Source: Actinomycetota bacterium
Lineage (GTDB): Bacteria > Actinomycetota > AC-67
Length of the DNA: 41,485 bases
Direction: 5' to 3'
Assembly (NCBI GenBank): GCA_035249485.1
Contig: DATFGK010000105.1
Coordinates: 1 to 41,485, forward strand
Shown here: piece after piece, positions 22,391 through 38,537 of the stretch
How positions within the stretch are numbered: position 1 is the stretch's first letter
Layout of the letters: every line of letters begins with the position of its first letter
Made by a program: the position numbers and the translations under genes
Notes under the pieces: model-generated
What the model saw: the letters and a program-made list of their open reading frames with translations, nothing else
What the model was told of the DNA's origin: nothing
The model's database searches: none

Positions 22391-23470
22391 TCAGCGCAGC
22401 GAGCGGGTGATGGTCCCGCCGCCGAGCACCTCGTCGCCGTCGTAGAAAGCCACGAGCTGGCCGGGGGCGATGCCGCGCTGCGGCTGCGCGAATCGGACGA
22501 TCGTGCGATCCGGATCGACGGCCTCGAGGGTCGCGGGGATCGCGGCGCCGTGCGCGCGGATCTGGACCGTCGCGGTGGTGCCGCCGGACGGCGCCTCACC
22601 GAACCAGGTGACACGCCCGGCCTCGAGGCCGCCGCGCGCAAGGAGCTCGCCGGTGCCGACGATCACCCGGTTGGCGGTCGCGTCGACCTCGACGACGTAC
22701 CGCTTCTCGGCGAGACCCAGGCCGAGCCCGCGGCGCTGGCCGACCGTGTAGCGATGAACGCCGCCGTGCCCGCCGAGGACCGTTCCGTCGGCGTCGACGA
22801 TCTCACCGGCGGGGATGGAGCCGGGCTCGGCGAACCGCTCGACGAAACCGGCGGCGTCGCCGTCCGGCACGAAGCAGATCTCGTACGAGTCGGGCTTGTC
22901 GGCGGTTCGGAGCTTCAGCGAGCGCGCGAGCGCGCGGGTCTCGTCCTTGGTCTGCGCACCGATCGGGAACCGCGCGAACGACAGCGCCTCCTGCCCGATG
23001 GTGGAGAGCACGTACGACTGGTCCTTCGCGTGGTCGGCGCTCCGGTACATCCGCCACGTGTCGCCCTCGAACCGCGAAACCGCGTAGTGGCCGGTTGCCA
23101 CGGCGTCGAAGCCGGCGGCGCGGCCCCGCTCGAGCAGCGCGCCGAACTTGACGGTCTCGTTGCAGCGGACGCACGGGTTCGGCGTGCGGCCGCCCGCGTA
23201 CTCGGACACGAAGTCATCGAGCACCCCGCGCGAGAACTCCTCGGTCAAATTCCAAACGTAGAACGGGATGTCGAGCACCTGAGCGACGCGGCGGGCGTCG
23301 TCGGCCGCCTCGACCGTGCAGCACCCGTGGACCCGGCCGTCGGATTCGGACGAGGTCGCGTACGAGGAGAGCTTCATGTGCACGCCGGTCACGTCGTGAC
23401 CGTCGCGCGCGACGATCGCGGCGGCCACCGACGAGTCGACGCCGCCGGACATCGCGACGAGGACCTTCAT
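22391..23470 (-). CDS. mnmA: tRNA 2-thiouridine(34) synthase
   Basis: MKVLVAMSGGVDSSVAAAIV... has the PP-loop SGGVDS and catalytic Cys residues, 359 aa. The ATG overlaps the upstream TGA (ATGA). Confidence 0.95.
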   Translation of the reverse strand: MKVLVAMSGGVDSSVAAAIVARDGHDVTGVHMKLSSYATSSESDGRVHGCCTVEAADDARRVAQVLDIPFYVWNLTEEFSRGVLDDFVSEYAGGRTPNPCVRCNETVKFGALLERGRAAGFDAVATGHYAVSRFEGDTWRMYRSADHAKDQSYVLSTIGQEALSFARFPIGAQTKDETRALARSLKLRTADKPDSYEICFVPDGDAAGFVERFAEPGSIPAGEIVDADGTVLGGHGGVHRYTVGQRRGLGLGLAEKRYVVEVDATANRVIVGTGELLARGGLEAGRVTWFGEAPSGGTTATVQIRAHGAAIPATLEAVDPDRTIVRFAQPQRGIAPGQLVAFYDGDEVLGGGTITRSLR

Positions 23471-24612
23471 CGCCGCAGCCTCGCAACGCCGTCGACGATC
23501 GCCTCCGCGGCTCGGTCGATCTCCACTTCGGTCGTTCCGCGTCCGAGCGTCAGCCGGAGCGTTCCGCGCGCGAGATCGCGGGGGACGCCGAGCGCCGCGA
23601 GCACGTAGCTCGGCTCCGCCGCGCCCGAGGAGCATGCCGACCCCTGCGACGCCGCGACGCCGGCCGCGTCGAGCAGGAGGATCAGCGGCTCGCCGTCGAT
23701 CCCTTCGATGCACACGTGGAGGTTGTTCGGGAGCCGCTCGGCCGGGTGACCGTTCACGCGGACGCCGGGGATCCGTTCGCTCAGGTGCCGCTGGAGGCGG
23801 TCGCGGAGCGGGCCCACGGCGGACGCCCACACGTTGCGGTGCAACGCCGTCTCCTCGGCCGCCGCGCCGAAGCCGACGATCCCGGCGACGTTGTAGGTCC
23901 CCGAACGCACCTCACGCTCCTGACCACCGCCGTGCAGCAGCGGCTGGATCTTCACGCCGCGCCGCACGACGAGCGCTCCGACGCCTTTCGGGCCGCCGTG
24001 CTTGTGCGCGGCGATCGTGAGCAGATCGGCGATGCCCGCTTCGACGTTCAGCCATGGGACGGCCTGCACCGCGTCGGTGTGGAAGACGGCGCCGGCGTCG
24101 TGCGCGATCCGCGCCGCTTCGGCGACGGGCTGGATCGTGCCGACCTCGTTGTTCGCCCACATCACGCTGACCAGCGCGGTCTTGTCGTCGACGGCGGCTG
24201 CGAGCGCGTCGAGCCGTACGACGCCGTGCTCGTCGACACCGACCTCGCGCACCCGGAACCCCTGTCGCGCCAGCCACCGCGATGGATCGAGGACGGCGTG
24301 GTGCTCGATCGCCGTTACGACGATGCCGTCGCGCCCTTGCTCGCGCGCGTGCCAGGCGGCGCCTTTTATCGCGAGGTTGTCCGCCTCGGTTCCGCCCGAG
24401 GTGAAGACGATCTCGTCGGGGCGGGCGCCGACGGCCGCGGCGACGCGCTCGCGCGCCTCGTCGACGCCTTTGCGAGCCTCGCGGCCGGGCGCGTGCGCCG
24501 AGGACGCGTTGCCGAAGCGCTCGTCGAGGTAGGGAGCCATCGCTGCGCGTGCCGCCTCAGAAAGCGGCGTCGTGGCGGCGTGATCCAGGTAGATCGTGAG
24601 GGAAGCGCTCAT
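23467..24612 (-). CDS. iscS: Cysteine desulfurase (NifS/IscS class-V PLP enzyme)
   Basis: 381 aa, IYLDHAATTPL...FTSGGTEADNLAIKGA...AHKHGGPKGVGALVV...SQGSACSSG contains the PLP lysine and the active-site Cys loop. Confidence 0.92.
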   Translation of the reverse strand: MSASLTIYLDHAATTPLSEAARAAMAPYLDERFGNASSAHAPGREARKGVDEARERVAAAVGARPDEIVFTSGGTEADNLAIKGAAWHAREQGRDGIVVTAIEHHAVLDPSRWLARQGFRVREVGVDEHGVVRLDALAAAVDDKTALVSVMWANNEVGTIQPVAEAARIAHDAGAVFHTDAVQAVPWLNVEAGIADLLTIAAHKHGGPKGVGALVVRRGVKIQPLLHGGGQEREVRSGTYNVAGIVGFGAAAEETALHRNVWASAVGPLRDRLQRHLSERIPGVRVNGHPAERLPNNLHVCIEGIDGEPLILLLDAAGVAASQGSACSSGAAEPSYVLAALGVPRDLARGTLRLTLGRGTTEVEIDRAAEAIVDGVARLRR

Positions 24613-24636
24613 CGCCGCCAGCCTAGCAGCGGCGCG

Positions 24637-26778
24637 TCAGCTGAGATCGATGAACACGATGACCGCGTCGCCCTGGGCGTTCTCGTCCCGCAGATACCAC
24701 CGTGGATCGCGGAACACGCCGGCAACGTCGATGCCGGGGTCCTGGCCGTGCTCCTCCCACTGCCCGACGACGAACGCGTCGGTACTGCTGCCGTAGAGGA
24801 ACGGGTCGACGTCGTGGAACCCGTCCCGGTTGTTGTTGAGGTACCAGGTTATCCCGCGGACCACGCCCGCCGAGTCGATGCCGTCCCCGTTCCAATCGCC
24901 GGCGAGCTTCGCGTCGGTCGGATTGCCGTAGAAGAACGCGGCCCCGTCATGGAAGCCGTCGAAGTTGTCGTTCAGGTACCAGGCATTGCCGCGGACGACC
25001 CCGACGGAGTCTTTGCCGTCGCCGTTCCAGTCGCCGGCCAGCGGCACGTCGCCCGGGTTGCCGTACGGAAAGATGATGTCGGCCGTCGCATCGGTGGTGT
25101 TGTTCAGTAACCACAAGTTCCCGCGCACCGCGCCGGGGGTCGCGGTTCCGTTCCCGTCCCAGTCGCCGGCAACCGGGCGGTCCATCGGATTAGCGTAGAG
25201 GAACTCGACGTCGGGCTCGCCGTCGAAATCGTTGTGGAGGAACCACTTGCGCCCGATGACCGTTGCCGGCGTCTCGACGCCGTCGCCGTCCCAATCGCCC
25301 GAGAGTCGATACGGCGTCATCACCGAGAAGGTGCCCTCGGCCGGCCGCACTTGCTTACCGGCGAGGTCGGCGGCGGAGATCGACCACTTCACGACGCCGC
25401 CCTTGGTCAGCGTCCCGTCCGGATCGAGCCCGTTCCACGTCACGCCGGAAAGGCTCGTCCCGGTACCTGCGAACTCCTTGATCAGGGTGCCGTCCGACCA
25501 GCGGAACTGGACCTTCCATACGACGGTCGTCGTGAACGTGCCCGTGAGAGCGACCGTATCGCCGAGGCCGTCACCGTCCGGCGAAACAAGTGAGTTGCTC
25601 TGCGTCGGCAGGTAGAGCTTGGGGAGACCGATCTGCGACACCGCGGTCCGGATGGAAGGCAGGAGGTTGTACACCCTGCCGCCGGGACAGGTGGTCTGCT
25701 GTCCGTCGCGATGCCCGGAGATCCGGTTGAAGGTCTTCTTCTTCCCGACGGGATAGAGGTCCGAGCCGCCCGAGGTCATCACGACCGTCCCCACGGGCGG
25801 GATGTGGTGCACGTCCATCTTCCAGGCGAGGAGGTTCTTCAGTGACGCGACCATGTTCGACGTGGGCGAGACGGTCGAGAACGTTCCCATGAGCGAGATG
25901 CCCGTGCTGCCGGTGTTGAAGCCCAGCACGTGAGCGCCTATGACGGGCAACGTCATCCCGCCGTAACGGCCCTCGAAGATCTGGCCGTACTTGTCGACCA
26001 GGAAGTTGTAGCCGATGTCGCTCCAGCCGCGATTCTTCACGTGGTAGGCGTAGATGCTGCGCACGATCGCCGGGGACTCAGAGCTGCTGTAGGAATTGGA
26101 GCCCGCTGTGTGATGGACGAACGCCATGTTGACCGCGGTCGCATAGCGGGGGCAGCACTCGCGTATGGACTCGTTCGCACCCCACCCCGCCCGCGTGATG
26201 ATGCCGGGCTGCACCGTCATCGCGTGCGCCTTCGTGCCGCGGAAGAAGCTCGAAACCGAACCGACCACACGCTGGAGCAGGTTTGGCTTGCTCGCGTTGC
26301 CAAGCGAGTTGATGAGGTGAAGCTTTAGATCCTCGGCGGGAGGCGAGCCCGCCGGCGCGAAGTACCGGAGCTGCATCGCACCGGCCGTGCCGACCCAGAT
26401 CGGACCGGCGAAGACGCGCGTCGACGCGCGCGCGGCCTCCGGGCGGTCGGGAGCCTCATCGGGTTCGATGACCAGCTGCTGCCACTCGGACCATCCCGTC
26501 GCCGATCGGAAGCGCCCCTCGACGACGACTTCCTCGAGCGACTCATGATCCGCGTGGGGAGAATCGAACGACGCCGCAACCATGTTCGTGTCGATGGGTA
26601 GCTCGATCGAACGCTCGAGCCACGCGCCGACGCGGGCGGACGTCCGGATCGTGCCGGGCTCGACGGCGAGATCACGCGTTACCGTTTCGGGCGGAGCGGA
26701 GCGCGCGGACGACGGGAACGGAACACCGACGACGGCGATCGCCGTGAGCAGAACAAGGATGAAAAGCCGTCTCCCCAT
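24637..26778 (-). CDS. Secreted N-acetylmuramoyl-L-alanine amidase (Amidase_2/PGRP) with a FlgD-Ig-like domain and five C-terminal FG-GAP-like repeats
   Basis: Signal peptide MGRRLFILVLLTAIAVVGVPFPSSARSA. The amidase core is AFVHHTAGSN...GWSDIGYNFLVDKYGQIFEGR...GHRD...TTCPG. SPDGDGLGDT marks the Ig-like domain. Repeats occupy the last ~224 aa. The start was moved to the ATG at 26778. Confidence 0.85.
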   Translation of the reverse strand: MGRRLFILVLLTAIAVVGVPFPSSARSAPPETVTRDLAVEPGTIRTSARVGAWLERSIELPIDTNMVAASFDSPHADHESLEEVVVEGRFRSATGWSEWQQLVIEPDEAPDRPEAARASTRVFAGPIWVGTAGAMQLRYFAPAGSPPAEDLKLHLINSLGNASKPNLLQRVVGSVSSFFRGTKAHAMTVQPGIITRAGWGANESIRECCPRYATAVNMAFVHHTAGSNSYSSSESPAIVRSIYAYHVKNRGWSDIGYNFLVDKYGQIFEGRYGGMTLPVIGAHVLGFNTGSTGISLMGTFSTVSPTSNMVASLKNLLAWKMDVHHIPPVGTVVMTSGGSDLYPVGKKKTFNRISGHRDGQQTTCPGGRVYNLLPSIRTAVSQIGLPKLYLPTQSNSLVSPDGDGLGDTVALTGTFTTTVVWKVQFRWSDGTLIKEFAGTGTSLSGVTWNGLDPDGTLTKGGVVKWSISAADLAGKQVRPAEGTFSVMTPYRLSGDWDGDGVETPATVIGRKWFLHNDFDGEPDVEFLYANPMDRPVAGDWDGNGTATPGAVRGNLWLLNNTTDATADIIFPYGNPGDVPLAGDWNGDGKDSVGVVRGNAWYLNDNFDGFHDGAAFFYGNPTDAKLAGDWNGDGIDSAGVVRGITWYLNNNRDGFHDVDPFLYGSSTDAFVVGQWEEHGQDPGIDVAGVFRDPRWYLRDENAQGDAVIVFIDLS
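24640..25311 (-). repeat. Five tandem ~44-aa coding repeats (GDW[DN]GDG-x-VVRGNxWYLNN-FDG-x-FxYGNxxD)
   Basis: Periodicity is visible in the translated sequence of the amidase C-terminus. The last unit is degenerate (GQWEEHGQDPG...RWYLRDE). Confidence 0.8.
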
Positions 26779-26908
26779 TGAAGGCACAACCCCTATCACA
26801 TCGCGGCGCTCCAAGCCGCTATCGACGAAGAGCGAAACGCGCTTGAGCGGAGCGACCAGGGCTGGTGAACAAGGACAACTCGGGCTTAGAGGAACGGCGG
26901 TGCGGGAA

Positions 26909-28510
26909 CTACGGCTGGATCGACTTATCCCAATCGCCGGCGACCGCGAAATCCGATGAGGCGCCGAGCGCGAAGGGTGCGATGTTGTGCGTGCCGTCGA
27001 AGTCGTTGTTGAGGTACCAGACGTTCCCGCGGATGACGGCGGGTGTGGACTTTCCGTCCCCATCCCAGTCTCCGACAAGTTTCCGGTCGGACGAGGCGCC
27101 GTACGTGAAGGCGGGAACGGTCTGAGCTCCCGTGAAGCCGTCGCTCAGGTACCAGCGGTTGCCGCGGACGACGCCGGGGGTCATCCTCCCACGGGAGCCG
27201 TTGTCGTCGTCGTCCCAGTCGCCGACCACGAACCTGTCCGTCGAATTGCCGTACCGGAACGGTGCGATGTCGTGGTCGCCGTCGAAGTCGTTGCTCAGGT
27301 ACCAGGTGTTCCCGCGGATCACGCCGGGGGTCCAAGTCCCGTCGCCGTCCCAGTCTCCGACGACGGGGACGTCGGTCGAGTTCCCGTAGGCGAACGCAGG
27401 GATGGTCTGTGAGCCGGTGAGGTCGTCGCTGAGGTACCAACGGTTGCTGCGCCGGACACCGACCGTAGTGACGCCGTCGCCGTCCCAATCGCCGGCGAGC
27501 CGGACGTCGCCGGAGCCGCCGTACGCGAAGGCGGTCACGTCATGATCGCCGTCGAAGTCGTTGCTGAGGTACCAGGCGCTCCCCCGCACCACGCCGGGCG
27601 TGAAGCCGAACTGCGGAAGCGTGAAGGTCTCCTCGATCGATCCCACCTCGTTGCCTTGCGCGTCCTTGACGCGGTCCTCGGTCGGGACGTTGCCGGGATT
27701 GACGATGGTCCGGTAGGTCTGACCGGCTTCCAGCGGGTCGGTCGGGTTGATGGTCGCGGTCCGTTCCTCGGAGTCGTACTCGACGGTCGCCGGGAGATTC
27801 GTGCCGCCGAGGAGGCCCTCACGCACGACCACGTTCTGTGCGTCGACGCCGACGACGTTCTCGGAGAACTTCCAGACGATGTTCCCGTCCGGCGACATGG
27901 GAGCCGAGATCAGCTCGGCCGTCGGGGCGATGTTCGCCGTGATGGCCCCGCTCGTTCCTCCATCGCATGAATCCAGGAGGTTCGAAGGCTGGTACTCAAA
28001 CGCACAGCCCAGAATGGGCTCCGGGATCGTCACCGTGAAATCGTCGCCGTCGCCGATCGAGTCGGAGGTCTGCACCGCGAGGAAGTAGGTGTAGCTGCCC
28101 TCGGCCGACGCGGGGATCCCGGAGCTGACCACGATGTCCACCGTGCCACCCGTGTTCTCGAAGGAACTGCTCACCAGAGTGTCACCGTCGTCGAGCGCGT
28201 CCTCGTCCGTACCGGTGTCGCGATACACGGCGACGCCCACCGGCGATGTCTCGAGGTCGCTCAGCCCGGCGAGGTCGAAGTCGCCGTCGCCGTCCTGATC
28301 GGCGAACTGGACTTGCAGCCCTTGGAGCGTCCCGCTTCCGGTCATATTGATTCCGAATACCGCCTTCCGTGCCTCGACGCCGATCGTGCCGGGCGCGGTC
28401 ACATCGGTGACCGTGATGTTTACGGCGGCATGCGCCGCCGGCGTGCCGAGCATCATCGCGATGGACAGAAACACAAGAAGACCCGCCAAGCGGACGTTTC
28501 GGGCGCGCAT
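26909..28510 (-). CDS. Secreted protein: N-terminal Asp-rich beta domain, bacterial Ig-like (SbsA/Big_5-type) domain, five FG-GAP-like repeats
   Basis: Signal peptide MRARNVRLAGLLVFLSIAMMLGTPAAHA, with GGAGGA 5 nt upstream of the ATG at 28510. VVVREGLLGGTNLPATVEYDSEERTATINPTDPLEAGQTYRTIV is Ig-like. It has the same C-terminal repeats as the amidase. Confidence 0.75.
   Translation of the reverse strand: MRARNVRLAGLLVFLSIAMMLGTPAAHAAVNITVTDVTAPGTIGVEARKAVFGINMTGSGTLQGLQVQFADQDGDGDFDLAGLSDLETSPVGVAVYRDTGTDEDALDDGDTLVSSSFENTGGTVDIVVSSGIPASAEGSYTYFLAVQTSDSIGDGDDFTVTIPEPILGCAFEYQPSNLLDSCDGGTSGAITANIAPTAELISAPMSPDGNIVWKFSENVVGVDAQNVVVREGLLGGTNLPATVEYDSEERTATINPTDPLEAGQTYRTIVNPGNVPTEDRVKDAQGNEVGSIEETFTLPQFGFTPGVVRGSAWYLSNDFDGDHDVTAFAYGGSGDVRLAGDWDGDGVTTVGVRRSNRWYLSDDLTGSQTIPAFAYGNSTDVPVVGDWDGDGTWTPGVIRGNTWYLSNDFDGDHDIAPFRYGNSTDRFVVGDWDDDDNGSRGRMTPGVVRGNRWYLSDGFTGAQTVPAFTYGASSDRKLVGDWDGDGKSTPAVIRGNVWYLNNDFDGTHNIAPFALGASSDFAVAGDWDKSIQP
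26912..27610 (-). repeat. Five tandem ~44-aa coding repeats of the same GDWDGDG/RGNxWYLSN/YGNSTD family
   Basis: TPGVVRGSAWYLSNDFDGDHDVTAFAYGGSGDVRLAGDWDGDG... recurs five times and ends with an orphan GDWD motif. Confidence 0.8.
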
Positions 28511-28540
28511 CCGGTCCTCCGAATCGAGCAAATGAGTTCT

Positions 28541-28569
28541 TCAGAAAGATAAACGCACGAGTCTCGTGC
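28541..28569 (-). terminator. Weak candidate terminator after the PaaK-like gene
   Basis: The minus strand reads GCACGA-gac-TCGTGC followed by a T-rich tail, GTTTATCTTTCT, in an unusually AT-rich spacer. The stem is only 6 bp. Confidence 0.3.
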
Positions 28570-28592
28570 TGGTTATGAGCGATGGAACGCGC

Positions 28593-30026
28593 TCAGCGCT
28601 CCGCGAAGCGGCGGAACAAGCCTTCCGTGGCGTCGAGGCGCTGCCGGAGCTCCTCCTCGCCGGAGACCACGATCTGCGACGGTGCGGTCCCCCACCGTTC
28701 CAGCTCCTCGAAGAGCTCGATCAGCGGGGTCGGGTCGTCGGTCCGCGGCCGGATGTACACGAAGAACTGACCGTCATCCTCGGTTCCGGTGAGCTCGATC
28801 TGGAACTCCAGCGCACGCGGGACCGCCGACACGGCGGGGTACCGGAAGTCGAAGCGCACCGGGCGTCCGTTCAAACGCGTCCGGCGTTGCCAGGCGTTGC
28901 GCCGCACGCTCGGCCCGACGCGCGGCACGGTGCGGCCGCAGTTCGGGCAGGACTGCGTCGTGATGCCTCCGAGCGCGAGGTCGCCCGACCGCCACCGCGG
29001 CACGCCGCCGCCGCGGAAGCCGAGCGGCGTTACCGTGACTTCTCCCGGCGTCTGCTCGGCCAGCGGCGAGCCGGTGTCCGGAGACAGGACCTCGACCAGC
29101 TCGAGATCGGGGTAGGTGTGGAACCCGAACGTCTCGGTCTTGCCGACGGGGATCGCGCACTCGCCCCACAGCACGCGCCCCTCGGCGGGTCCGTAGGCTG
29201 CGGCGATCCTCGCGTTCACCGCCCCGGCGGCTGTGAGCGCCTCGCCGAGCTGCTCCCGTTCGGCCTTGGTCAGCGACCGGCCGACGGCGAGCACGACGTT
29301 GATCTCGCTCAGGTCCAGTGCGGCGTTGCGCGCAGCCTCGGGGAACTCCGCGACCTCGTCGGCGGGGATCGCCACCGCGGTCGGACGCGCCGCGTCGAAC
29401 GCGGCGAGCGCCCGAACGATATCGCCGCCCTCGCGACGCGTGTGGACCGCGCTCATCCCGACGCCGTGTGCCATGTAGAACACGCCCCAGAAGTCCAGCG
29501 TCGGCCCGAACGGGATCAGGTTGAGCAGGCGATCCTCGCGGTCGATCCCGGCGATGGTTGCCAGGCGGGCGCCGGCGCGCGCGAACAGCTCGAGATCGTC
29601 GCGCGTGTACGCGATGGGGATCGGCCCGCCGGGCCCGAACGCGATGTGCTGGTGGATCGGACGCGACGCTGCCTCGATCGCGAGCGCCTGCACGTCCTCT
29701 CCGCCGACGAGCCGCGCCGCGGCGACCCGCCGGAGCGTCGCGCGGTCGCTGAAGCGGCGCACTCCTTCGGCGGTCCCTTGGAGCACCATGCCCCGCGCGC
29801 CGTCGACGTTGCGGACGGGATCGAGCACGTCGGCCCGGGTCGCGGTCGGTACCTTGTTGAGCTCGTCGAGGCCCTTGAAGCTCCGCGCGTCGAGCCCGGC
29901 GGCCGACAGCCGTGCGCGCGCGGTGGGCACGTGCGCGAGCTGCATCTGCAGCAGCGTCTGACGCAGCAACGTGTCCTGCGTACGGCGGTAATCCTTCGGG
30001 GAGACCTGGTCCCAGGGGCGAGCCAC
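28593..30026 (-). CDS. PaaK/CapK-like adenylate-forming (ANL superfamily) protein with a degenerate P-loop and a Zn-ribbon-like insert
   Basis: 477 aa. The N-terminus, LLQMQLAHVPTARARLSAAGLDARSFKGLDELNKVPTATRADVL, and the overall layout resemble phenylacetate-CoA ligase/F390 synthetase/CapK. FGPGGPIPIAYTRDDLE sits where PaaK has SSGTTGKP..YT..D. Also contains SCPNCGRTVPR. GTG start at 30026. Confidence 0.7.
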   Translation of the reverse strand: MARPWDQVSPKDYRRTQDTLLRQTLLQMQLAHVPTARARLSAAGLDARSFKGLDELNKVPTATRADVLDPVRNVDGARGMVLQGTAEGVRRFSDRATLRRVAAARLVGGEDVQALAIEAASRPIHQHIAFGPGGPIPIAYTRDDLELFARAGARLATIAGIDREDRLLNLIPFGPTLDFWGVFYMAHGVGMSAVHTRREGGDIVRALAAFDAARPTAVAIPADEVAEFPEAARNAALDLSEINVVLAVGRSLTKAEREQLGEALTAAGAVNARIAAAYGPAEGRVLWGECAIPVGKTETFGFHTYPDLELVEVLSPDTGSPLAEQTPGEVTVTPLGFRGGGVPRWRSGDLALGGITTQSCPNCGRTVPRVGPSVRRNAWQRRTRLNGRPVRFDFRYPAVSAVPRALEFQIELTGTEDDGQFFVYIRPRTDDPTPLIELFEELERWGTAPSQIVVSGEEELRQRLDATEGLFRRFAER

Positions 30027-30032
30027 GGCGCC

Positions 30033-30039
30033 TATTCTA
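30033..30039. promoter_or_regulatory. Overlapping face-to-face -10 candidates (minus TAGAAT, plus TATTCT) in the divergent spacer
   Basis: cctATTCTAc: the minus-strand TAGAAT ends 7 nt before the GTG start at 30026, which implies a leaderless mRNA. The plus-strand TATTCT could serve the methyltransferase/GH57 operon. Confidence 0.35.
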
Positions 30040-30112
30040 CGGACGGGCCGGGTCCGCGCTTGCCGCTCGGGAATGGCTCCTCGAGGGCCTGCCGACTACC
30101 ATTCCGAGCCCC

Positions 30113-30856
30113 GTGGACGACACCGCACCGGCATCCGACCTCATCCTCACCGGCGAAAGAACCCTCCCCGGCATCCCCGAGGAGAACTACTGGTTCCAGC
30201 GCCACGTGGTCGCCTACCGGCACGCGGCGGATCGCATCGCCGGGATGAACGTTCTCGACGCGGGCTGCGGTGAGGGGTACGGGTCGGCGATGCTCGCCGA
30301 ACACGCCGCGTCGGTCGTCGGCGTCGACCTTGAGCGCGACGTCATCGAGCACGCGGCCGAGCGCTACCCGAACGTTCGCTTCCAGACCGGCGACCTCGCC
30401 ACGCTCGGCTTCCCAGACGCATCGTTCGACGCCGTCGTGACGTTCCAGGTGATCGAGCACATGCAGAGCCCGCGCGGCTTCCTCACGGAGTGCGGGCGCG
30501 TGTTGCGGCCCGGCGGGCTGCTCGTGCTCTCGACGCCGAACCGGTTGACGTTCTCGCCGGCAGGCGTACGCAACCCGTTCCATACCGTCGAGTTCGCGCC
30601 GGCCGAGCTGCGTTCGGTTCTGGAAGACCGATTCGTGGTTCAGCTCCTTGGAGGGACGTTCCACCGGTGGCGGCTCGACCTCGTCGAGCGGATGATGCGC
30701 GCCAGTCTGCCCGAGCGGCTCATCTCGCAACCGGTACCCGAGTGGCCGGCGTGGCTCCGGCGCGTCGTCACGGCAGTTACGCCGCGCGACTTCGTGATCC
30801 GCGAGTCTCACGTCGAGCGTTCGCTCGATCTGATCGCCGTGGCCCGCCGGCGATAA
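30113..30856 (+). CDS. Class I SAM-dependent methyltransferase (Rv3030-like)
   Basis: MNVLDAGCGEGYGSAMLAEHAASVVGVDLE is SAM motif I and LRPGGLLVLSTPN is motif III. The start is uncertain: GTG at 30113 is the first plausible in-frame start past the divergent gene. It ends 10 nt before the GH57 gene. Confidence 0.78.
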   Translation: MDDTAPASDLILTGERTLPGIPEENYWFQRHVVAYRHAADRIAGMNVLDAGCGEGYGSAMLAEHAASVVGVDLERDVIEHAAERYPNVRFQTGDLATLGFPDASFDAVVTFQVIEHMQSPRGFLTECGRVLRPGGLLVLSTPNRLTFSPAGVRNPFHTVEFAPAELRSVLEDRFVVQLLGGTFHRWRLDLVERMMRASLPERLISQPVPEWPAWLRRVVTAVTPRDFVIRESHVERSLDLIAVARRR

Positions 30857-30866
30857 CGCCGAGCCG

Positions 30867-32405
30867 ATGGGCGTCTTCTCGCTCGTCCTCCACACCCATC
30901 TGCCGTACGTGCGGCGCAACGGCGTCTGGCCGTCGGGCGAGGACTTCTTCCACCAGGCGGCGACCGAGAGCTACCTGCCGATGCTGGAGACGATCGAACG
31001 GATCGCGGAGGGTCACGCGGACGGCCCCGCGCTGACGGTCGGCATCACGCCGCTGATCGCACACCAGATGGAAGACCCGTACATGCTCCGCGAGCTGACG
31101 CTGTACCTCGGACGCTACGACCTGCGGGCGCTGTGGCAGGTTGCCAACTACGACGGCGTCTACACCGAGGAGTTCAAGGACATCGCCGGCTTCTACGCGC
31201 GCTTCGCCCGACGCCAGCTCGCGCGCCTCGAGTCGCTGCCCGGCGGGATCGCCGGCGGGTTCGGAACGCTCGAGCGTGCCGGGGCGATCGAGATCGCCGG
31301 CGGCCCGGCGTCCCACCCGGTCCTGCCCGAGATCGGCGAGCCGGCGGTGATGCGCGCGCAGGTCTTCCACGGCATCGCCGAACACGAGCGTCACTTCGGC
31401 CACAAACCGAAGGCGATGTGGATGCCCGAGTGTGCCTACCGCCCGGCGCTCGGGATCGAGGAGCTGCTCGCCGAGGCGGGCATCACCCACGTCGTCGTGG
31501 ACGGCCCGACGATGCTCCGCTCGGACGGGCCCGGTGCGACGTTCGCGCCGCGTCGGATCGGAGCGACCGACGTCGCGGCGTTCTCGCGCAACCTCGACGT
31601 CACCTACCGCGTGTGGTCGCCGACCGGCGGGTACCCGGGCAACAAGTGGTACCGCGAGTACTTCGCGTACGACATGACCGCGGGCTTCAAGAACTGGCGC
31701 GTCACCTCGACGAAGACGCCGATCGCGGGCAAGAAGCCCTACGACCCGGCGCGCGCGATCGAGCGCACCGAGAAGGACGCCGCCGACTTCGTGCAGCTGC
31801 TCGACGACTCGCTGACGGCGCACGAGGAGCGCACCGGCTCCGAGGGAGTAGTCGTCGCCTGTTACGACACCGAGCTCTTCGGCCATTGGTGGTTCGAGGG
31901 GCCGACGTTCCTCCAGAACGTGTACGCGATGCTCGAGAACCATCCGCGCGTGCGCGCGATGTCGCTCGGCCGCGCGCTCGAGGCGGTCCCGCCCTCACGC
32001 AGCGTCGAGCTGCAGGAGGGCTCGTGGGGATTCCGCAAAGACCTCCGATCGTGGATCGCGCCGGAGACCGAGGAGATGTGGCGTCTGCTCGCCGAAGCCG
32101 AATCCGAGACGATCCGGATCGCGCGCAAGTACACCGACCCAGACGCCGCACAGGAGCGCGCACTCGCACAGCTCGTCCGCGAGCTGTTCCTGCTCCAGTC
32201 GAGCGACTGGCCGTTCATGGTCCTCCGCGGCAAGAACGCGGGCTACGCGCGCGAGCGGTTCGATGGACACCGTGAACGGTGGGGGCGGCTCGTCGAGGCG
32301 CTTCTCCGCAGGACGCCGGCGGGGCCGCTCGACCGCCTGACCGGCGAGCTTGCCGAGCTCGACAACGCGTTCCCGGAGCTCGGTTACAAGCTGTTGATCT
32401 CGTAG
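30867..32405 (+). CDS. GH57-family alpha-glucan branching enzyme (Rv3031-like)
   Basis: 512 aa, MGVFSLVLHTHLPYVRRNG.WP.GE...HPVLP...MWMPECAY...CYDTELFGHWWFEGP is the GH57 signature (HTHLPY, catalytic E in PECA, D in YDTELFGHWW). Confidence 0.9.
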   Translation: MGVFSLVLHTHLPYVRRNGVWPSGEDFFHQAATESYLPMLETIERIAEGHADGPALTVGITPLIAHQMEDPYMLRELTLYLGRYDLRALWQVANYDGVYTEEFKDIAGFYARFARRQLARLESLPGGIAGGFGTLERAGAIEIAGGPASHPVLPEIGEPAVMRAQVFHGIAEHERHFGHKPKAMWMPECAYRPALGIEELLAEAGITHVVVDGPTMLRSDGPGATFAPRRIGATDVAAFSRNLDVTYRVWSPTGGYPGNKWYREYFAYDMTAGFKNWRVTSTKTPIAGKKPYDPARAIERTEKDAADFVQLLDDSLTAHEERTGSEGVVVACYDTELFGHWWFEGPTFLQNVYAMLENHPRVRAMSLGRALEAVPPSRSVELQEGSWGFRKDLRSWIAPETEEMWRLLAEAESETIRIARKYTDPDAAQERALAQLVRELFLLQSSDWPFMVLRGKNAGYARERFDGHRERWGRLVEALLRRTPAGPLDRLTGELAELDNAFPELGYKLLIS

Positions 32406-33289
32406 GGCCGCGGCCACGGGTTCGGCTTGCAGGTCCGGTCGCCCGTGGTGAGACCCTTCGACTGCTGCATCATCACCGGCGCGTAGGCGCCGTCCTTCGG
32501 GCAGCCACGGTGGTGCTGGCCGAGCGTGTGGCCGACCTCGTGGTTGACGAGCATCTGCCGGTAGACGGGCACCGCTCCCGGCCAGTACTTCGAGCCGGTG
32601 AACCAGCGGTCCGAGTTGAACACGACCTCCCGGTAGCCGGCGCACGAGTAGTAGAAGTTCACGCTGAGCCCGATCAGCTGCATGCAACGCTTCTCCGCGG
32701 CGGCCGGCTTCCGGAGCCCGAGGAGCAGCGCCCCCTCGGGGTCGTACCGGAACCGAACCTCCCCGCTCGCGATCCAGGAGCGCTCGTCGCACAGGATCGA
32801 GAGCAGGTCCGACACGAATCTGGCCGGCGTGGTCGCGAGGCCGTCCTCGACGAGCACCCGGAACTTGATGAGCCTGGCGCCGGGACTGCCGCAGGTCTTG
32901 CTCGGCTGGGAGGGACCGCTGCTGGCCAGGAAGGACGGGGAGGCAGCCTTCTGGACCGGGATCTTGCTCGGTGCCGGGGACGGCGTGACGGACGCGAGCT
33001 GGGTCGGCGTCGCCGGCGCGGAGGGCGGGAGCAGCGCGACGGCCTGGTTCTGCGGCCTGCTCGCGTCGGCGAGAAGCGCGTTCCCGGCTCCCCCGCCGAA
33101 GCCGATCAGCAAACCGAACAGTGCGCCGAGATAGATCGGCCACCAACCCAACCGGAAACGACTCAGATCGAACCCCCCTGGAGCGAACCCGGAAAGGATA
33201 TTCAGGCGGGAGCCTTCGAGCGACTCGCCTGAACGATGCTGGAGTTTTGCCCGGTACCTGCCGCGCGTGACACGATGCCGCGAGTTCAA
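32384..33289 (-). CDS. Membrane-anchored HExxH zinc-metallopeptidase-like protein (DUF3152-like)
   Basis: TM anchor LGWWPIYLGALFGLLIGFGG, a Pro/Ser/Ala linker, then a C-terminal domain with MLVNHEVGHTLGQHH. There is no in-frame ATG, and the start is uncertain (TTG at 33289, or a downstream CTG/TTG). The 3' end overlaps the GH57 3' end by 22 nt. Confidence 0.65.
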   Translation of the reverse strand: MNSRHRVTRGRYRAKLQHRSGESLEGSRLNILSGFAPGGFDLSRFRLGWWPIYLGALFGLLIGFGGGAGNALLADASRPQNQAVALLPPSAPATPTQLASVTPSPAPSKIPVQKAASPSFLASSGPSQPSKTCGSPGARLIKFRVLVEDGLATTPARFVSDLLSILCDERSWIASGEVRFRYDPEGALLLGLRKPAAAEKRCMQLIGLSVNFYYSCAGYREVVFNSDRWFTGSKYWPGAVPVYRQMLVNHEVGHTLGQHHRGCPKDGAYAPVMMQQSKGLTTGDRTCKPNPWPRPYEINSL

Positions 33290-33300
33290 GGGGCCAGCTC

Positions 33301-34575
33301 ATGCGGATCCTCATCCTTTCGTGGGAGTACCCGCCGCGCATCGTCGGCGGCTTGGGGAAGCACGTCCATCGCCTCGCGACGGCCCTCGCCGACGCCGGAC
33401 ACACGATCCACGTGGTGACCCGAGACCATCCCGACGCCCCGGCCGAGGAGGTCGTCGACGGCGTCCACGTGGTGCGCGTCGGCGAGTACCCGCCGATCGT
33501 CCCGTTCGACGAGCTGATCCCCTGGGTGCTCCAGTTCAACGTGGGCGTGCTCGAGCGCGCGACGAAGATCCTGCTCGAGGAGGAGGTCGACCTCGTCCAC
33601 GCGCACGACTGGCTGGTCGCGTACGCAGCGGCGGGCGTGAAGAACCTGTTCGACGTGCCCCTTGTCTCAACGGTCCACGCAACGGAGTACGGTCGCCACC
33701 AGGGCTACCTGCCCGGCCCGATGAACAAGCTGATCCACCAGATCGAGTGGTGGCTCACCTACGAGTCCCGCCGCACGATCACGTGCTCGCGCTACATGCA
33801 CGACCAGATCGAAGAGATCTTCCAGCTGCCGCCCGAAAAGCTCGACGTGATCTCCAACGGCGTCGACCTCGAGGCGGTCCACAAGCCCGAGGGCGTCGAG
33901 GAGTTCCGCGCGAAGCTGCTCGACCCCGGCGACAAGATGATCTTCTTCGCCGGCCGGCTCGAGTACGAGAAGGGAGTGCAGACGATGCTCGACGCGCTCC
34001 CGCTCGTGAACGCGGAGGTTCCGGTCCGGTTCTTCGTCGCGGGCGTCGGCACGCACGAGCAGGCGTTGCGTGAGCACGTGGAGCGGGACGGGCTCGACGC
34101 GCACGTGGAGTTCCTCGGCTTCGTACCCGACGAGGAGCTGGCCATGTACTACGCGGCAGCCGACCTCGCGGTGGTGCCGTCGCTCTACGAGCCGTTCGGG
34201 ATGGTGGCGCTCGAGACGATGGCGGCCGGGACACCGTGCATCGCGGCCGACACGGGCGGCCTGCGCGAGCTCGTCGTGCACGACGCGACCGGGCTGCGGT
34301 TCTCGCCGGGCGACCCGGCGTCGCTCGCCGGGGCGATCCTGCGACTGCTGACCGACACGCGACTCGACCGCCGGCTCACGCTCGATGCGCGGCGGATGCT
34401 CAACGATCAGTTCTCCTGGCGCTCGATCGCGGACCGGACCGTCGACGTCTACAGACGAGCGATCGAGGAGGAGCGCAAGCTCCGCCGGACCCACCGCCGC
34501 GATGAGCGCGCACCGCTCCGGGTGATCCTCGGCCGGTCGGAGATCCTCGGATTCGCCGACGAAAGCGCTGGCTAG
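33301..34575 (+). CDS. GT4-family alpha-glucosyltransferase (Rv3032-like / glycogen-synthase-like)
   Basis: 424 aa, MRILILSWEYPPRIVGGLGKHVHRLA... and the EX7E region PSLYEPFGMVALETMAAGTPCIAADTGGLRELV. AAGGGG lies upstream of the ATG. Confidence 0.9.
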   Translation: MRILILSWEYPPRIVGGLGKHVHRLATALADAGHTIHVVTRDHPDAPAEEVVDGVHVVRVGEYPPIVPFDELIPWVLQFNVGVLERATKILLEEEVDLVHAHDWLVAYAAAGVKNLFDVPLVSTVHATEYGRHQGYLPGPMNKLIHQIEWWLTYESRRTITCSRYMHDQIEEIFQLPPEKLDVISNGVDLEAVHKPEGVEEFRAKLLDPGDKMIFFAGRLEYEKGVQTMLDALPLVNAEVPVRFFVAGVGTHEQALREHVERDGLDAHVEFLGFVPDEELAMYYAAADLAVVPSLYEPFGMVALETMAAGTPCIAADTGGLRELVVHDATGLRFSPGDPASLAGAILRLLTDTRLDRRLTLDARRMLNDQFSWRSIADRTVDVYRRAIEEERKLRRTHRRDERAPLRVILGRSEILGFADESAG

Positions 34576-34644
34576 GACCTCGATCGGAGATCCGGGACCC
34601 AAAGCTGCTCAAGCCGTGGCCGGGTTCGGGCGACAATCCCAAGG

Positions 34645-34800
34645 ATGATCGCTTTCCTCGCCGGCTTGTGCCTGAAGGGCGACGGCAACGTCTGTCCGCC
34701 GGGCAGCACCGAGATCCCCGCGATCTACGCGCTCTCGGGAGGCTTCCTCTTCCTCGCGGTGCTCGGCTTCGCGTGGCTCGGCTACCGCAGCAAGCGCTGA
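34645..34800 (+). CDS. Candidate 51-aa small membrane peptide (not in the ORF track)
   Basis: MIAFLAGLCLKGDGNVCPPGSTEIPAIYALSGGFLFLAVLGFAWLGYRSKR. Third codon positions are almost all G/C, as in genuine genes here. It has one clear TM helix with a basic anchor. The RBS is poor (aagg abuts the ATG). Confidence 0.35.
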   Translation: MIAFLAGLCLKGDGNVCPPGSTEIPAIYALSGGFLFLAVLGFAWLGYRSKR

Positions 34801-34803
34801 ACC

Positions 34804-35490
34804 CTAGAACCGATAGCCGAACCGCTCCAGGTCCGGACGGAAGACCTGCTCAACGATCTTCCGCGCCTCGTCCGTGTAGTACGAGCGATAGTCGGCCGCG
34901 CGCGGCGTGGGGTTGATGTTGGCGAGCTCCATCCCCGTCGGCGCCCCGATCTTGGCGAGCACCTCGTCGAGGTCCTCGTGCAGCCGTTCGAAACGCATGA
35001 TGTGATCGACCCGCTTCAGGTAGCGCTCGTACATGTGCCGCGGACGGACCGCCCTCAACCGCTCCATCCGCCCGCCGGGCAGGTAGCGGTCCTTCACCCA
35101 GTCGCTGAACGAGAGGTCCGCGGCTCGCCGCACGTCTTCGAGCGCGCCGGGCTTCTTGTGCAGGAACGAGTTCGGGTCGTCGACGAGCTTGGAATACGTC
35201 GTCTGGGTCTTGACGAACAGGGAGACCAATGAGTCGAACGGGTTCCGGACCGCGCATACCTTGAACAGGGCCGCGATGTCCTGCGCGGAGACCAGCCCGT
35301 AATAGAGGAGGTCGGGGATCGTGCTGTGCTTCGAGTCGACGAGCAGCTTCCCGTCGTCGTCGAGGATGTCCTTCCAGGGAACGCGGGTTCCCTCGAGATG
35401 AGGCACGATCACGCCGTACGCGATCGAGGTACACCCGGTGCGCGGCGACATCACGAACAGGAACCGATACGGGTGCGAGATGAACGCCAT
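34804..35490 (-). CDS. Carbohydrate-type sulfotransferase (Sulfotransfer_2/3-like)
   Basis: 228 aa. FVMSPRTGCTSIAY resembles the 5'-phosphosulfate-binding loop (P-[KR]-T-G-[ST]-T-S). AVRNPFDSLVSLF resembles the 3'-phosphate-binding R-[DN]-P-x-x-R-x-x-S motif. The start was moved to the ATG at 35490. Confidence 0.78.
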   Translation of the reverse strand: MAFISHPYRFLFVMSPRTGCTSIAYGVIVPHLEGTRVPWKDILDDDGKLLVDSKHSTIPDLLYYGLVSAQDIAALFKVCAVRNPFDSLVSLFVKTQTTYSKLVDDPNSFLHKKPGALEDVRRAADLSFSDWVKDRYLPGGRMERLRAVRPRHMYERYLKRVDHIMRFERLHEDLDEVLAKIGAPTGMELANINPTPRAADYRSYYTDEARKIVEQVFRPDLERFGYRF

Positions 35491-35498
35491 CGCGCGCC

Positions 35499-36236
35499 CT
35501 AGGTTCCCCTCTGTACGGCCGCCCCGCGGGACTTGAGCACCCGCGCCGGCACTCCGCCGACGATCGACCGCGGCGGCACGTCGCGGTTGACGAGCGCGTG
35601 CGACGCGATCACCGAGCCTTCCCCGACCGTGACGCCGCGCAGGATCGTCGACTTCTCGCCGATCCAGCAATCGCGTCCGACGACCACGGGCGACTTCACG
35701 ATCCCTTGCTTCTTGATCGTGACGTTGAGGTCGTCGTACTTGTGGTCGAAGTCGCAGACGTAGATCCAGTCCGCGAAGATGCAGTCGTCCCCGATGTCGA
35801 TGTCGAGATAGCAGTTGATCGTGTTCTTTGCTCCGAACACGACCTTGTTTCCGATCCGCAGATTCCCTTCGTGGCATCGGATCGCGTTGCCCTTCCCGAT
35901 CCACACCCACCGTCCGAGGGTCAGTCGCCCGTAGCCGCGTCGCGCGTACACCTCGACCTTCGGTCCGAGAAACACGAACCCTTCCGTCTTGATGTGGGGG
36001 TGGGTGACCTTGAACCTCAGGAAGCGGATCCCGAGGACCCAGTAGCGCCAGGTATACAGGCGATGGCTCCAGATGAATCGAAGCGTCCGCCCGACGCGGA
36101 CCGGGAAAGACCGCGCGACCGGTGGCGGAGGAGGGACGGGCGCCAGCTCGGGCCCGCGGCTCGCCACGACGGCGTCGGCTTCGGGCACGACCGGCTCGTC
36201 GCCGGCGCCGGTATGGAAGGGCCTGGGATCCTCCAT
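35499..36236 (-). CDS. Left-handed beta-helix (hexapeptide-repeat) acyl/acetyltransferase (Rv3034c-like)
   Basis: IGNKVVFGAKNTINCYLDIDIGDDCIFADWIYVCDFDH...VVVGRDCWIGEKSTILRGVTVGEGSVIASHALVNRDVPPRSIVGGVPARVL are hexapeptide repeats. ATG at 36236 is 11 nt after the upstream stop. Confidence 0.8.
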   Translation of the reverse strand: MEDPRPFHTGAGDEPVVPEADAVVASRGPELAPVPPPPPVARSFPVRVGRTLRFIWSHRLYTWRYWVLGIRFLRFKVTHPHIKTEGFVFLGPKVEVYARRGYGRLTLGRWVWIGKGNAIRCHEGNLRIGNKVVFGAKNTINCYLDIDIGDDCIFADWIYVCDFDHKYDDLNVTIKKQGIVKSPVVVGRDCWIGEKSTILRGVTVGEGSVIASHALVNRDVPPRSIVGGVPARVLKSRGAAVQRGT

Positions 36237-36247
36237 CGGGTGCGAGC

Positions 36248-37361: not shown

Positions 37362-38537
37362 GTGAAGCGCGCAATTCTCATCGCCGTTACGGCCACGCTC
37401 TTCGCGGGACTCTTTTCGCTCCCGGCCCACGCCGCCGCGTGCACCAACGACAACTTCGCCGACGCGACGCTCATCAACACCCTCGATCATTCCGACCAGT
37501 GCGACAGTTCCGCCGCGACGACGGAGACCGGTGAACCGATGACGAGCTGCGCCGTCGGCAAGAATGTCGGCAAGACGACGTGGTGGAAGTACACACCCGA
37601 CGGGTCCTCGGCCCGGCCGCTGCACATCAAGGTCAACACCTACGCCAGTCCCTTCAACACGCTGATCGCCTTGTGGCGGCAGGACGGCAGCGGCTTCGCC
37701 GGCTTGACGCCGGTTGCCTGCAACGACCAGCTTGGGATCCACAAGACCTCTCGAGTCACGCAGGCGCTCACCATCGGGAAGACGTACTACATCCAGGCCG
37801 GCGGCGTGAGTCAGGCCGGGGGCACATTGAACCTCCGAGTGAAGCCCCGCATCTGGCACGTGGGCGTCGTCCGCGGTGACGACTGGTACGTCAACCGTGG
37901 CCACGACGGGCTCGCGGAATACCACTTCGTCTATGGGAAGAGCACGGACCAGTTCCTCGCCGGCGACATCATCGGCCACGGCGTTCACACGCCGTGGGTG
38001 CGTCGCGGCAACCTGTTCATCCTCAACGATTGGTTCGACAGCGGCTTCGTAAAGCAGTTCTCATACGGCAACTCGACGGACAAGGCGCTCGTCGGTGACT
38101 GGAACGGCGATGAGGTCATGACACCGGTGGTCCGCCGTGGCGGCACCTGGTACTTCAACAACGGTTACGACGGCTCGCACGAGTTGAGCATCGCGTACGG
38201 CAACTCGAGCGACGTGCCTCTGGTCGGGGACTGGAACGGCGACGGGATCTGGACGCCCGGCGTGCGGCGAGGGAACATCTTCTACCTCAACAACGGGTTC
38301 GACGGCGCCCACGACATCGCGGCCTTCGCGTACGGCATGACGTCGGACGTGGTGGTCGTGGGCGACTGGAACGCCGACGGCAAGATGACGCCCGGAGTCG
38401 TGCGCGGCAGCGGCTGGTACCTAAGCAACGGCTTCACCGGGGTGCAGGACATCCCGTCATTCGCGTACGGGAATTCGACCGACAAGAAGATCGTCGGAGA
38501 CTGGAACGGCATCGTCGAATCGGACGGTGCCGGCTGA
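37362..38537 (+). CDS. Secreted protein: N-terminal beta-sandwich domain (NDNFADA...TETGEP...WWKYTP...FNTLIALW...CNDQ...TYYIQAGG) plus five FG-GAP-like repeats
   Basis: Signal peptide KRAILIAVTATLFAGLFSLPAHAAA with a GTG start after GGGGG. The C-terminal 227 aa carry the same repeat family as 24637-28510. Confidence 0.8.
   Translation: MKRAILIAVTATLFAGLFSLPAHAAACTNDNFADATLINTLDHSDQCDSSAATTETGEPMTSCAVGKNVGKTTWWKYTPDGSSARPLHIKVNTYASPFNTLIALWRQDGSGFAGLTPVACNDQLGIHKTSRVTQALTIGKTYYIQAGGVSQAGGTLNLRVKPRIWHVGVVRGDDWYVNRGHDGLAEYHFVYGKSTDQFLAGDIIGHGVHTPWVRRGNLFILNDWFDSGFVKQFSYGNSTDKALVGDWNGDEVMTPVVRRGGTWYFNNGYDGSHELSIAYGNSSDVPLVGDWNGDGIWTPGVRRGNIFYLNNGFDGAHDIAAFAYGMTSDVVVVGDWNADGKMTPGVVRGSGWYLSNGFTGVQDIPSFAYGNSTDKKIVGDWNGIVESDGAG
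37854..38534 (+). repeat. Five tandem ~44-aa coding repeats of the GDWNGDG/RRGNxFYLNN/YGNSxD family
   Basis: VGVVRGDDWYVNRGHDG...YGKSTDQFLAGDIIGHG... recurs five times and ends with an orphan GDWNG motif. Confidence 0.8.

Follow-up and report, generated by a model that had tools for sequence, protein, structure and literature searches.

The window analysed here is the whole 41,485-nucleotide stretch of contig DATFGK010000105.1 (assembly GCA_035249485.1) from an Actinomycetota bacterium, and our subject is the repetitive tail shared by the products of three of its genes, here called A, B, and C. Genes A and B lie in tandem on the minus strand and together fill positions 24637-28510, and the original prediction, made from the DNA alone, that both end in five tandem units was borne out, with five units of 44-50 amino acids (aa) in each; gene C, on the plus strand, ends in a module of the same kind. 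Structure models make it very probable that this shared tail is a compact five-bladed β-propeller of the FG-GAP/VCBS type, built of four-stranded blades of ~45 aa.

The likeliest start of gene A is the ATG at 26778, giving a protein that begins MGRRLFILVLL...SSARS, and an alternative, longer open reading frame (ORF) from a TTG at 27078 runs into gene B. The ATG of gene B at 28510 sits 5-6 nt downstream of GGAGGA. The N-termini of all three proteins, read by eye, resemble Sec signal peptides (…TPAAHA/AV and …PSSARS, and in C …LPAHA/A), from which the proteins are predicted to be exported by a Sec-type route.

In front of their tails the three proteins carry different heads. The amidase of the peptidoglycan recognition protein (PGRP) type that had been predicted in A was recovered as an Amidase_2 domain (PF01510; E 1.6e-16, 61.3 bits against a cut-off of 26, aa 314-466 of the long ORF). 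The immunoglobulin (Ig)-like domain of FlgD type postulated behind it found support in neither Pfam nor the PDB, given that for this linker domain Pfam returns just a weak DUF7497 match (E 0.013) and a sequence search of the PDB came back empty. For B, an Asp-rich β domain and an SbsA-type Ig domain had been claimed; the second is present as Big_5 (PF13205; E 9e-8, 33.2 bits against a cut-off of 23.6, aa 213-298 of a 540-aa ORF), which from its InterPro name we take to be the SbsA-type domain, whereas the first, like the N-terminal domains of A and C, matches no family in Pfam. The head of C (37434-37847, ~135 aa) lacks a Pfam match yet is conserved in homologues P0002-P0022, which are 376-394 aa long and of the same architecture, and in another homologue, P0109, a PPC domain takes the equivalent place.

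Repeat units and predicted fold

A unit hidden Markov model (HMM) run over all six frames placed 15 units in the window, five each in A, B, and C, and no units elsewhere in it; the model was made from these same 15 units, so that its scores are circular and its positions exact (Table 1). The 12 complete units share a mean pairwise identity of 51% (range 37-69%), which is far beyond chance. The consensus drawn from 1,382 units of 254 homologues, G-D-W-[DN]-G-D-G-x-D-T-x-G-V-x-R-G-n-x-[WFY]-[YF]-L-x-N-x3-G-x-a-D-x2-F-x-[YF]-G-x3-D-x-P-[VL]-V, agrees with the one first proposed from the window. Its best-conserved element is the Dx[DN]xDG loop (D 98%, D/N 97%, D/N 94%, G 89%), and the invariant residues specific to the family are GDW, R15, [WFY][YF]L-x-N, [YF]G, and D40. 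Within the window, GDW[DN]GDG or a close variant stands at 12 of the 15 loop positions (nine exact, three with one substitution); the other three comprise two degenerate loops, GQWEEHG in blade 5 of A (24640-24765) and GDIIGHG in blade 2 of C, its first unit with a GD loop (37962-38093), and the C-terminal orphan strand of B (26912-26938), which stops in a truncated GDWDK, so that some modules must fall short of five intact calcium sites. The BC loop (R-G-N) and the loop from strand D to the next strand A ([YF]-G-x3-D-x-P) are conserved across all blades, and the CD loop is the most variable region. At the DNA level, blades 3-4 of module A contain a tandem repeat (24789-25065; period 135 bp, 2.1 copies, 78% matches), a pattern that suggests recent blade duplication or gene conversion.

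AlphaFold2 models of modules A and B, built with a 79-sequence alignment, both fold into 20 β-strands in a 5x4 pattern (A: predicted local distance difference test score 95.2, predicted template modelling score 0.89; B: 93.9 and 0.90), which we read as the closed five-bladed propeller that had been suspected. Blade packing, velcro closure, and pocket geometry were read from the DSSP strand order of these models, in which module A runs A-B-C-D five times and module B opens with B-C-D and closes with an extra strand A. Modules B and C both begin at strand B and finish with an extra strand A in their sequences, so the earlier observation that two of the three members start in mid-unit and end in an orphan GDW[DN] is real, and the modelled strand order agrees with it. 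The orthologue of A in a related Actinomycetota metagenome-assembled genome (MAG; locus L001, JBKKCR010000089.1) appears to retain the frame of A, having the same strand-D tail (…VTFVDL). Velcro and intact-blade permutations are known among five-bladed lectins (PMC4735018), and the permuted frames of B and C and the intact frame of A match these two arrangements.

Table 1. Positions of the three genes, their domains, and the repeat units in the window (blades as predicted)
Feature	Position	Strand	Description
Gene A	24637..26778	minus	713 aa: signal peptide, unannotated N-terminal domain, Amidase_2, Ig-like linker domain, five-blade module
Gene B	26909..28510	minus	533 aa: signal peptide, unannotated Asp-rich N-terminal domain, Big_5, five-blade module
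Gene C	37362..38537	plus	391 aa: signal peptide, unannotated ~135-aa N-terminal domain, five-blade module
Amidase_2 catalytic domain of A	25681..26139	minus	PF01510; N-acetylmuramoyl-L-alanine amidase, PGRP/T7-lysozyme type
Linker domain of A	25315..25596	minus	~95 aa, beta-rich, putative Ig-like
Big_5 domain of B	27638..27895	minus	PF13205; bacterial Ig-like
Module A	24640..25314	minus	five blades, intact-blade frame
Module A units	25168-25299, 25036-25167, 24901-25035, 24766-24900, weak fifth (HMM match 24682-24759)	minus	unit HMM
Module B	26912..27610	minus	five blades, permuted frame: first PGVVRG (strand B), last extra strand A (AVAGDWD)
Module B units	27494-27601, 27359-27493, 27224-27358, 27074-27223, 26939-27073	minus	unit HMM
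Module C	37848..38534	plus	five blades, permuted frame as in B
Module C units	37854-37961, 37962-38093, 38094-38225, 38226-38360, 38361-38495	plus	unit HMM

Placement within the FG-GAP/VCBS propellers

When the models of A and B were compared with the PDB by Foldseek, propellers of the FG-GAP/VCBS type ranked top. The first match for both was UmbA4 with bound teichuronic acid (9oee_A; E 1e-5 and 5e-7), followed by the fungal N-acetylglucosamine (GlcNAc) lectins PVL, PAL, and AAL2, and further by KICSTOR chain B, a Tc toxin chain in 6h6f, Bap1, and a chain of the integrin α5β1 headpiece; we take the KICSTOR chain to be the FG-GAP protein ITFG2, the 6h6f chain to be the TcB component, and the integrin chain to be the α5 subunit. 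Sequence searches of the PDB with 3- and 79-sequence profiles found no propeller, their sole match being a CAP-domain protein that was reached via heads included in the alignment.

The tail is, as had been supposed, missed by the standard libraries. Module A meets Pfam FG-GAP_3 (PF13517) at E 0.73 and 10.9 bits, below the gathering cut-off of 26.9, module B and protein C have no FG-GAP or VCBS match in Pfam at E up to 10, and NCBIfam holds no family for A or B. Among relatives, FG-GAP_3 is matched by 10 of 79, 3 of 75, and 6 of 88 proteins (about 4-13%) at E below 1e-3 or 1e-4. For two of them, P0066 (aa 145-199) and P0088 (aa 164-215), positions 1-56 of the 61-position profile are matched, in a stretch that extends from one GDWxGDG loop, by way of the WYL strand, as far as the following loop. 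Profile coverage, which the original prediction had proposed as a check, is thus sub-threshold for the window copies and extends over the whole unit in these two relatives. Because the match spans it, RGNxWYL corresponds to the ordinary B and C strands of a VCBS blade that has diverged, and the view that this strand is foreign to FG-GAP has to be given up.

What defines the VCBS/integrin supercluster is a metal-binding AB loop of the form Dx[DN]xDG (Pereira and Lupas 2021, PMC8023676). Motif, fold, structural neighbours, and partial Pfam detection together uphold the reading of the units as FG-GAP/VCBS-like calcium-loop blades and leave little doubt that the family belongs to this supercluster; its AB loops probably bind Ca2+. 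The suggestion that the module might be undescribed holds in so far as the family is divergent and unnamed, but not as regards the kind of repeat, which lies inside the supercluster already described (PMC8023676).

Distribution, fusion partners, and a possible lectin-like role

An exhaustive profile search of 1.84 billion cluster representatives, with sizes counted in 50%-identity clusters, returned 22,613 members at E<=1e-3, 14,649 at 1e-10, and 2,847 at 1e-30, and at least 423 stretches encode a relative when one genome per species is taken. The modal number of units is five (133 of 254 proteins, a sample chosen by a five-unit profile and thus biased towards five), and some proteins have about 10. 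The giant proteins P0121 (3,432 aa), P0172 (3,101 aa), P0025, and L048 contain 8-10 matched stretches, implying several propellers. Most relatives occur in Actinomycetota (Acidimicrobiia, Nitriliruptoria, Rubrobacteria, Georgenia, Micromonospora, Geodermatophilus), and others in Chloroflexota, Acidobacteriota, Myxococcota, Verrucomicrobiota, Saccharibacteria, and Methanomicrobiales, so that the module is not specific to actinobacteria. Archaeal members include, besides the Methanomicrobiales locus, a fusion to an archaellin-like domain. Several genomes carry multiple loci, and five of 80 loci come from one Blastocatellia MAG.

The fusion partners are diverse. At least ten unrelated heads are active on peptidoglycan (Amidase_2, Amidase_3, CHAP, NlpC/P60, M23, M15_4, GH25, Glucosaminidase, SpoIID, SLT_3), and VanW and polysaccharide deacetylase heads are also found; peptidoglycan-related domain matches among 88 representatives come to 24 with VanW and 23 without it. 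CAP is the commonest head among short proteins, and DUF3152, NAGPA, polysaccharide lyase 14, an apiosidase-like domain, and Laminin_G_3 occur as well. PF27111 appears on the Pfam lists of P0005 and P0063, where it probably corresponds to a duplicated Cys-containing C-terminal domain of these proteins and not to the propeller. The module is mostly C-terminal, being N-terminal in about 15% of the genome-locus homologues and more often in the protein set; this placement, its length of 225 aa, and its folded nature led us to reject a C-terminal sorting signal.

The related MAG mentioned above has its genes arranged as in the window, an AMP-binding (PaaK-like) gene followed by B, A, and a cysteine desulfurase gene, with conserved stretches at 720-7796 of L001 and 23467-30026 of the window. 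B is 48% identical to its orthologue there over the full length, while for A the identity is 62% in the head and 43% in the module; on this sequence comparison the module of A diverges faster than the catalytic head, as expected if a recognition domain evolves faster. The L001 orthologue of A has about 240 extra residues between its Ig-like region and the propeller.

Other neighbours in the window, read from their translations, are ligA, mnmA, and the cysteine desulfurase gene, together with a glucan-synthesis and modification cluster, and the window shows no sign of a toxin, immunity, or umb-type locus. The cluster (29912-37201), situated between B/A and C, holds a SAM (S-adenosylmethionine) methyltransferase, a GH57 enzyme with a branching-enzyme C-terminal domain, a DUF3152 protein (32384-33289, minus strand), a GT4 glycosyltransferase, a sulfotransferase, a hexapeptide acyltransferase, and a second methyltransferase. 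DUF3152 is fused to a five-blade module elsewhere, in P0061 and in one A4 member. The cluster recalls, by a presumed likeness, the mycobacterial methylglucose-lipopolysaccharide (MGLP) cluster Rv3030-Rv3037c. Polysaccharides of the MGLP type are cytoplasmic, and L001, which was not checked for the cluster, retains the B-A pair; a link between the module and this cluster was rejected on these two points.

How might such a module work? We consider that there is an even chance of its being a lectin-like domain that gives glycan-mediated targeting. After Sec export the module would fold, probably stabilised by up to five Ca2+ ions, and would bind Ca2+ on its AB and CD face; it could then grip a repeating envelope glycan multivalently through several equivalent sites, the candidate ligand being peptidoglycan glycan strands or a wall-linked glycopolymer, and would thereby tether whichever enzyme is fused to it at that surface. 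For gene A this would concentrate the muramoyl-L-alanine amidase on the wall, at its substrate, and in the products of genes B and C the module would carry heads of unassigned activity. Such a role is suggested because the module has recombined with many unrelated wall-cleaving domains and because, among its structural relatives solved with a ligand, the closest have GlcNAc or a wall glycopolymer as that ligand, from which a wall-binding role may reasonably be inferred.

Several observations weigh against a lectin acting at the wall. The literature searched holds no experimental or binding study of any member. The TM-scores to the lectins are just 0.45-0.51, values near 0.5 that arise because the neighbouring propellers have six or seven blades. 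The R-G-N and [YF]-G-x3-D-x-P loops, alike in all blades, could be structural rather than ligand-contacting. Many heads are not wall-directed (CAP, S8/M10/M12 proteases, GSDH, DUF5122, alkaline phosphatase, the archaellin-like domain), and given these "cell-wall module" may be too narrow a name and "lectin-like extracellular targeting domain" a safer one. The family is also present in diderm phyla and archaea, which makes a single wall ligand unlikely. Wall-binding domains are common in phage lysins, and a tblastn search with module B found no module in 50,697 phage records; a Foldseek search of BFVD, likewise, did not find the module among viral models and returned just generic WD40 or BTB propellers at E above 0.009. 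There is thus no evidence for use of the module in phage endolysins.

The Foldseek matches also include protein-binding propellers, namely KICSTOR, BBSome, and WIPI subunits and integrin α5, and this opens the alternative that the propeller is no lectin and instead a platform for protein-protein docking, by which a surface protein, an S-layer, or a partner complex would be engaged in the way of integrin, BBSome, or WD40-like propellers. The marked heterogeneity of the heads, CAP domains and proteases among them, would fit such a platform, and the B-A adjacency kept in L001 could reflect a shared partner. We nevertheless regard docking as unlikely, in that the best-scoring ligand-bound neighbours (UmbA4, PVL, PAL, AAL2) are carbohydrate binders, the blade-to-blade identity of 51% and the multivalent symmetry are typical of lectin propellers (PMC4735018), the ten or more families of peptidoglycan-cleaving heads point to a polysaccharide substrate, and gene C and most of the homologues examined have no conserved partner gene beside them.

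The range of heads bears on the identity of the target as well. If the lectin mechanism is kept and the target changed, the module would bind polymers of the environment or of prey (chitin, exopolysaccharide, or foreign walls, for example) for nutrition or antagonism and not for maintenance of the cell's own wall. Heads such as polysaccharide lyase 14, the apiosidase-like domain, NAGPA, GSDH, Laminin_G_3, and the proteases speak for this, as do the faster divergence of the module relative to the amidase head, the many paralogues in some genomes, of which the Blastocatellia MAG is an example, and the fact that the nearest characterised relative, UmbA4, recognises the wall polymer of a competitor. 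Being a variant of lectin-like targeting, it differs in target and not in mechanism, and the absence of toxin, immunity, and umb-type genes from a window whose neighbours are housekeeping genes tells against it; we judge it rather improbable. It is very unlikely, finally, that the module has no specific ligand and acts as a calcium-dependent folding or stability domain that aids the folding and protease resistance of exported multidomain proteins. Conservation is indeed highest in the Dx[DN]xDG loops and the core residues, and the module pairs with almost any extracellular head at either terminus, but a five-fold symmetric propeller of 225 aa is costly for that purpose, relatives of known function bind ligands with this fold, and such a role would not account for the enrichment of heads active on peptidoglycan.

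Returning to lectin-like targeting, its widest form would make the module a major overlooked domain for the recognition of envelope glycopolymers in Actinomycetota and several other phyla, a functional counterpart, on peptidoglycan hydrolases, of LysM, SH3b, and SLH in which fast-evolving blades encode species-specific recognition of wall polymers, after the manner of Umb lectins, and proteins of the gene A type are targeted lysins. This extension is tentative and on balance doubtful; were it true, specificity could be read from the propeller or re-engineered through it. Pfam and NCBIfam miss the module in most members, so that the annotation of thousands of secreted hydrolases reads as if a targeting domain were lacking. 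Confirmation of a lectin would add a module that binds walls or glycopolymers to the repertoire of high-GC Gram-positives, in which classical wall-binding domains are poorly charted, would tie ordinary autolysin-like enzymes to the recognition principle of umbrella toxins (a propeller lectin on teichuronic acid), and would offer a small, symmetric, and probably Ca-dependent scaffold usable for cell labelling or the retargeting of lysins. If the module does not bind glycans, a useful family definition is what would be left, and nothing beyond it.

Comparison with known systems

A first comparison is with FG-GAP_3/VCBS repeats (PF13517), which share with the module the four-stranded blade, the Dx[DN]xDG motif in the AB loop, and the setting of secreted multidomain prokaryotic proteins. 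By threshold the module does not belong to Pfam FG-GAP_3, scoring 10.9 against 26.9 bits in A and giving no match in B and C. It shares the structural neighbours of the VCBS supercluster, namely PVL, the Tc toxin propeller, and integrin (PMC8023676), and differs from the characterised VCBS members, which have seven or eight blades, in its short blades of 44-45 aa and in a blade count fixed at five.

Among structures with a bound ligand, UmbA4 is closest. UmbA propeller lectins, which belong to the umbrella toxins of Streptomyces, bind wall teichuronic acid and set which cells are targeted (PMC13274773); 155 UmbA proteins are annotated with FG-GAP_3 domains (PMC11062931 supplement), and the UmbA families include five-bladed propellers (12 families, 5BPF-1 to -12) as well as FG-GAP_3 types (PMC13274773, PMC11062931). 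Like the module, UmbA4 is a secreted actinobacterial propeller with conserved calcium-type loops that forms a C-terminal appendage for targeting (a proposed role in the case of the module); unlike it, UmbA4 has six blades, and HMMER detects no sequence similarity between the two. The head of UmbA proteins is trypsin-like, and their assembly partners are UmbB and UmbC (ALF repeats); none of these three is found in the window, and no trypsin catalytic motifs were present in the 75 locus proteins scanned. An UmbA identity was rejected for the window proteins, whose heads are Amidase_2, Big_5, or unannotated and whose neighbours are housekeeping and glycan-synthesis genes.

The fungal lectins PVL, PAL, and AAL2 (2bwr, 5mb4, 4tqm) resemble the module in VCBS-type blade geometry, with a Foldseek probability of 1.00. 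Their blades have calcium loops, and sugar is bound between neighbouring blades. Unlike the module, they have seven blades of ~57 aa, are 14-17% identical to it, and are stand-alone eukaryotic lectins with no enzyme fused; the titles of the PDB entries give GlcNAc as the ligand of PVL-type propellers. Tachylectin-2, a five-bladed lectin for GlcNAc and N-acetylgalactosamine (GalNAc), is alike in its five blades of ~45-47 aa, its high internal identity, and its velcro/intact permutation (PMC4735018). It is placed in the same supercluster, in which tachylectin-like propellers are without the Asp-rich AB loop (PMC8023676), and it does not appear among the top 50 Foldseek matches. Assignment to Tachylectin (PF14517) was rejected, as Pfam gives no match even with the E-value limit set at 10 and the module family has the Asp-rich loop as its hallmark.

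In its mode of use the module is comparable to LysM, SH3b, SLH, CW_binding_1/2, and PG_binding_1, which are also non-catalytic, often repeated domains fused to many unrelated peptidoglycan-cleaving domains. Its fold is unrelated to theirs, wall binding by the module is in contrast a proposal, and Pfam detects no LysM, SH3b, SLH, CW_binding, or PG_binding domain in A, B, and C (E<=1; E<=10 for modules A and B and full protein C).

The classification of the VCBS supercluster also describes "VCBS actinolectins", which occur in actinobacteria only and consist of a propeller alone or after a TIM barrel, and many clusters of "hypothetical propellers" (PMC8023676). The actinolectins were set apart from the present family by their description, since the latter spans other phyla and has dozens of heads. 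Compared by description, the family may still coincide with one of the "hypothetical propeller" or "VCBS actinolectin" clusters or with a five-bladed Umb family; what is new here is a compact, five-bladed, and unannotated family within the VCBS propellers.

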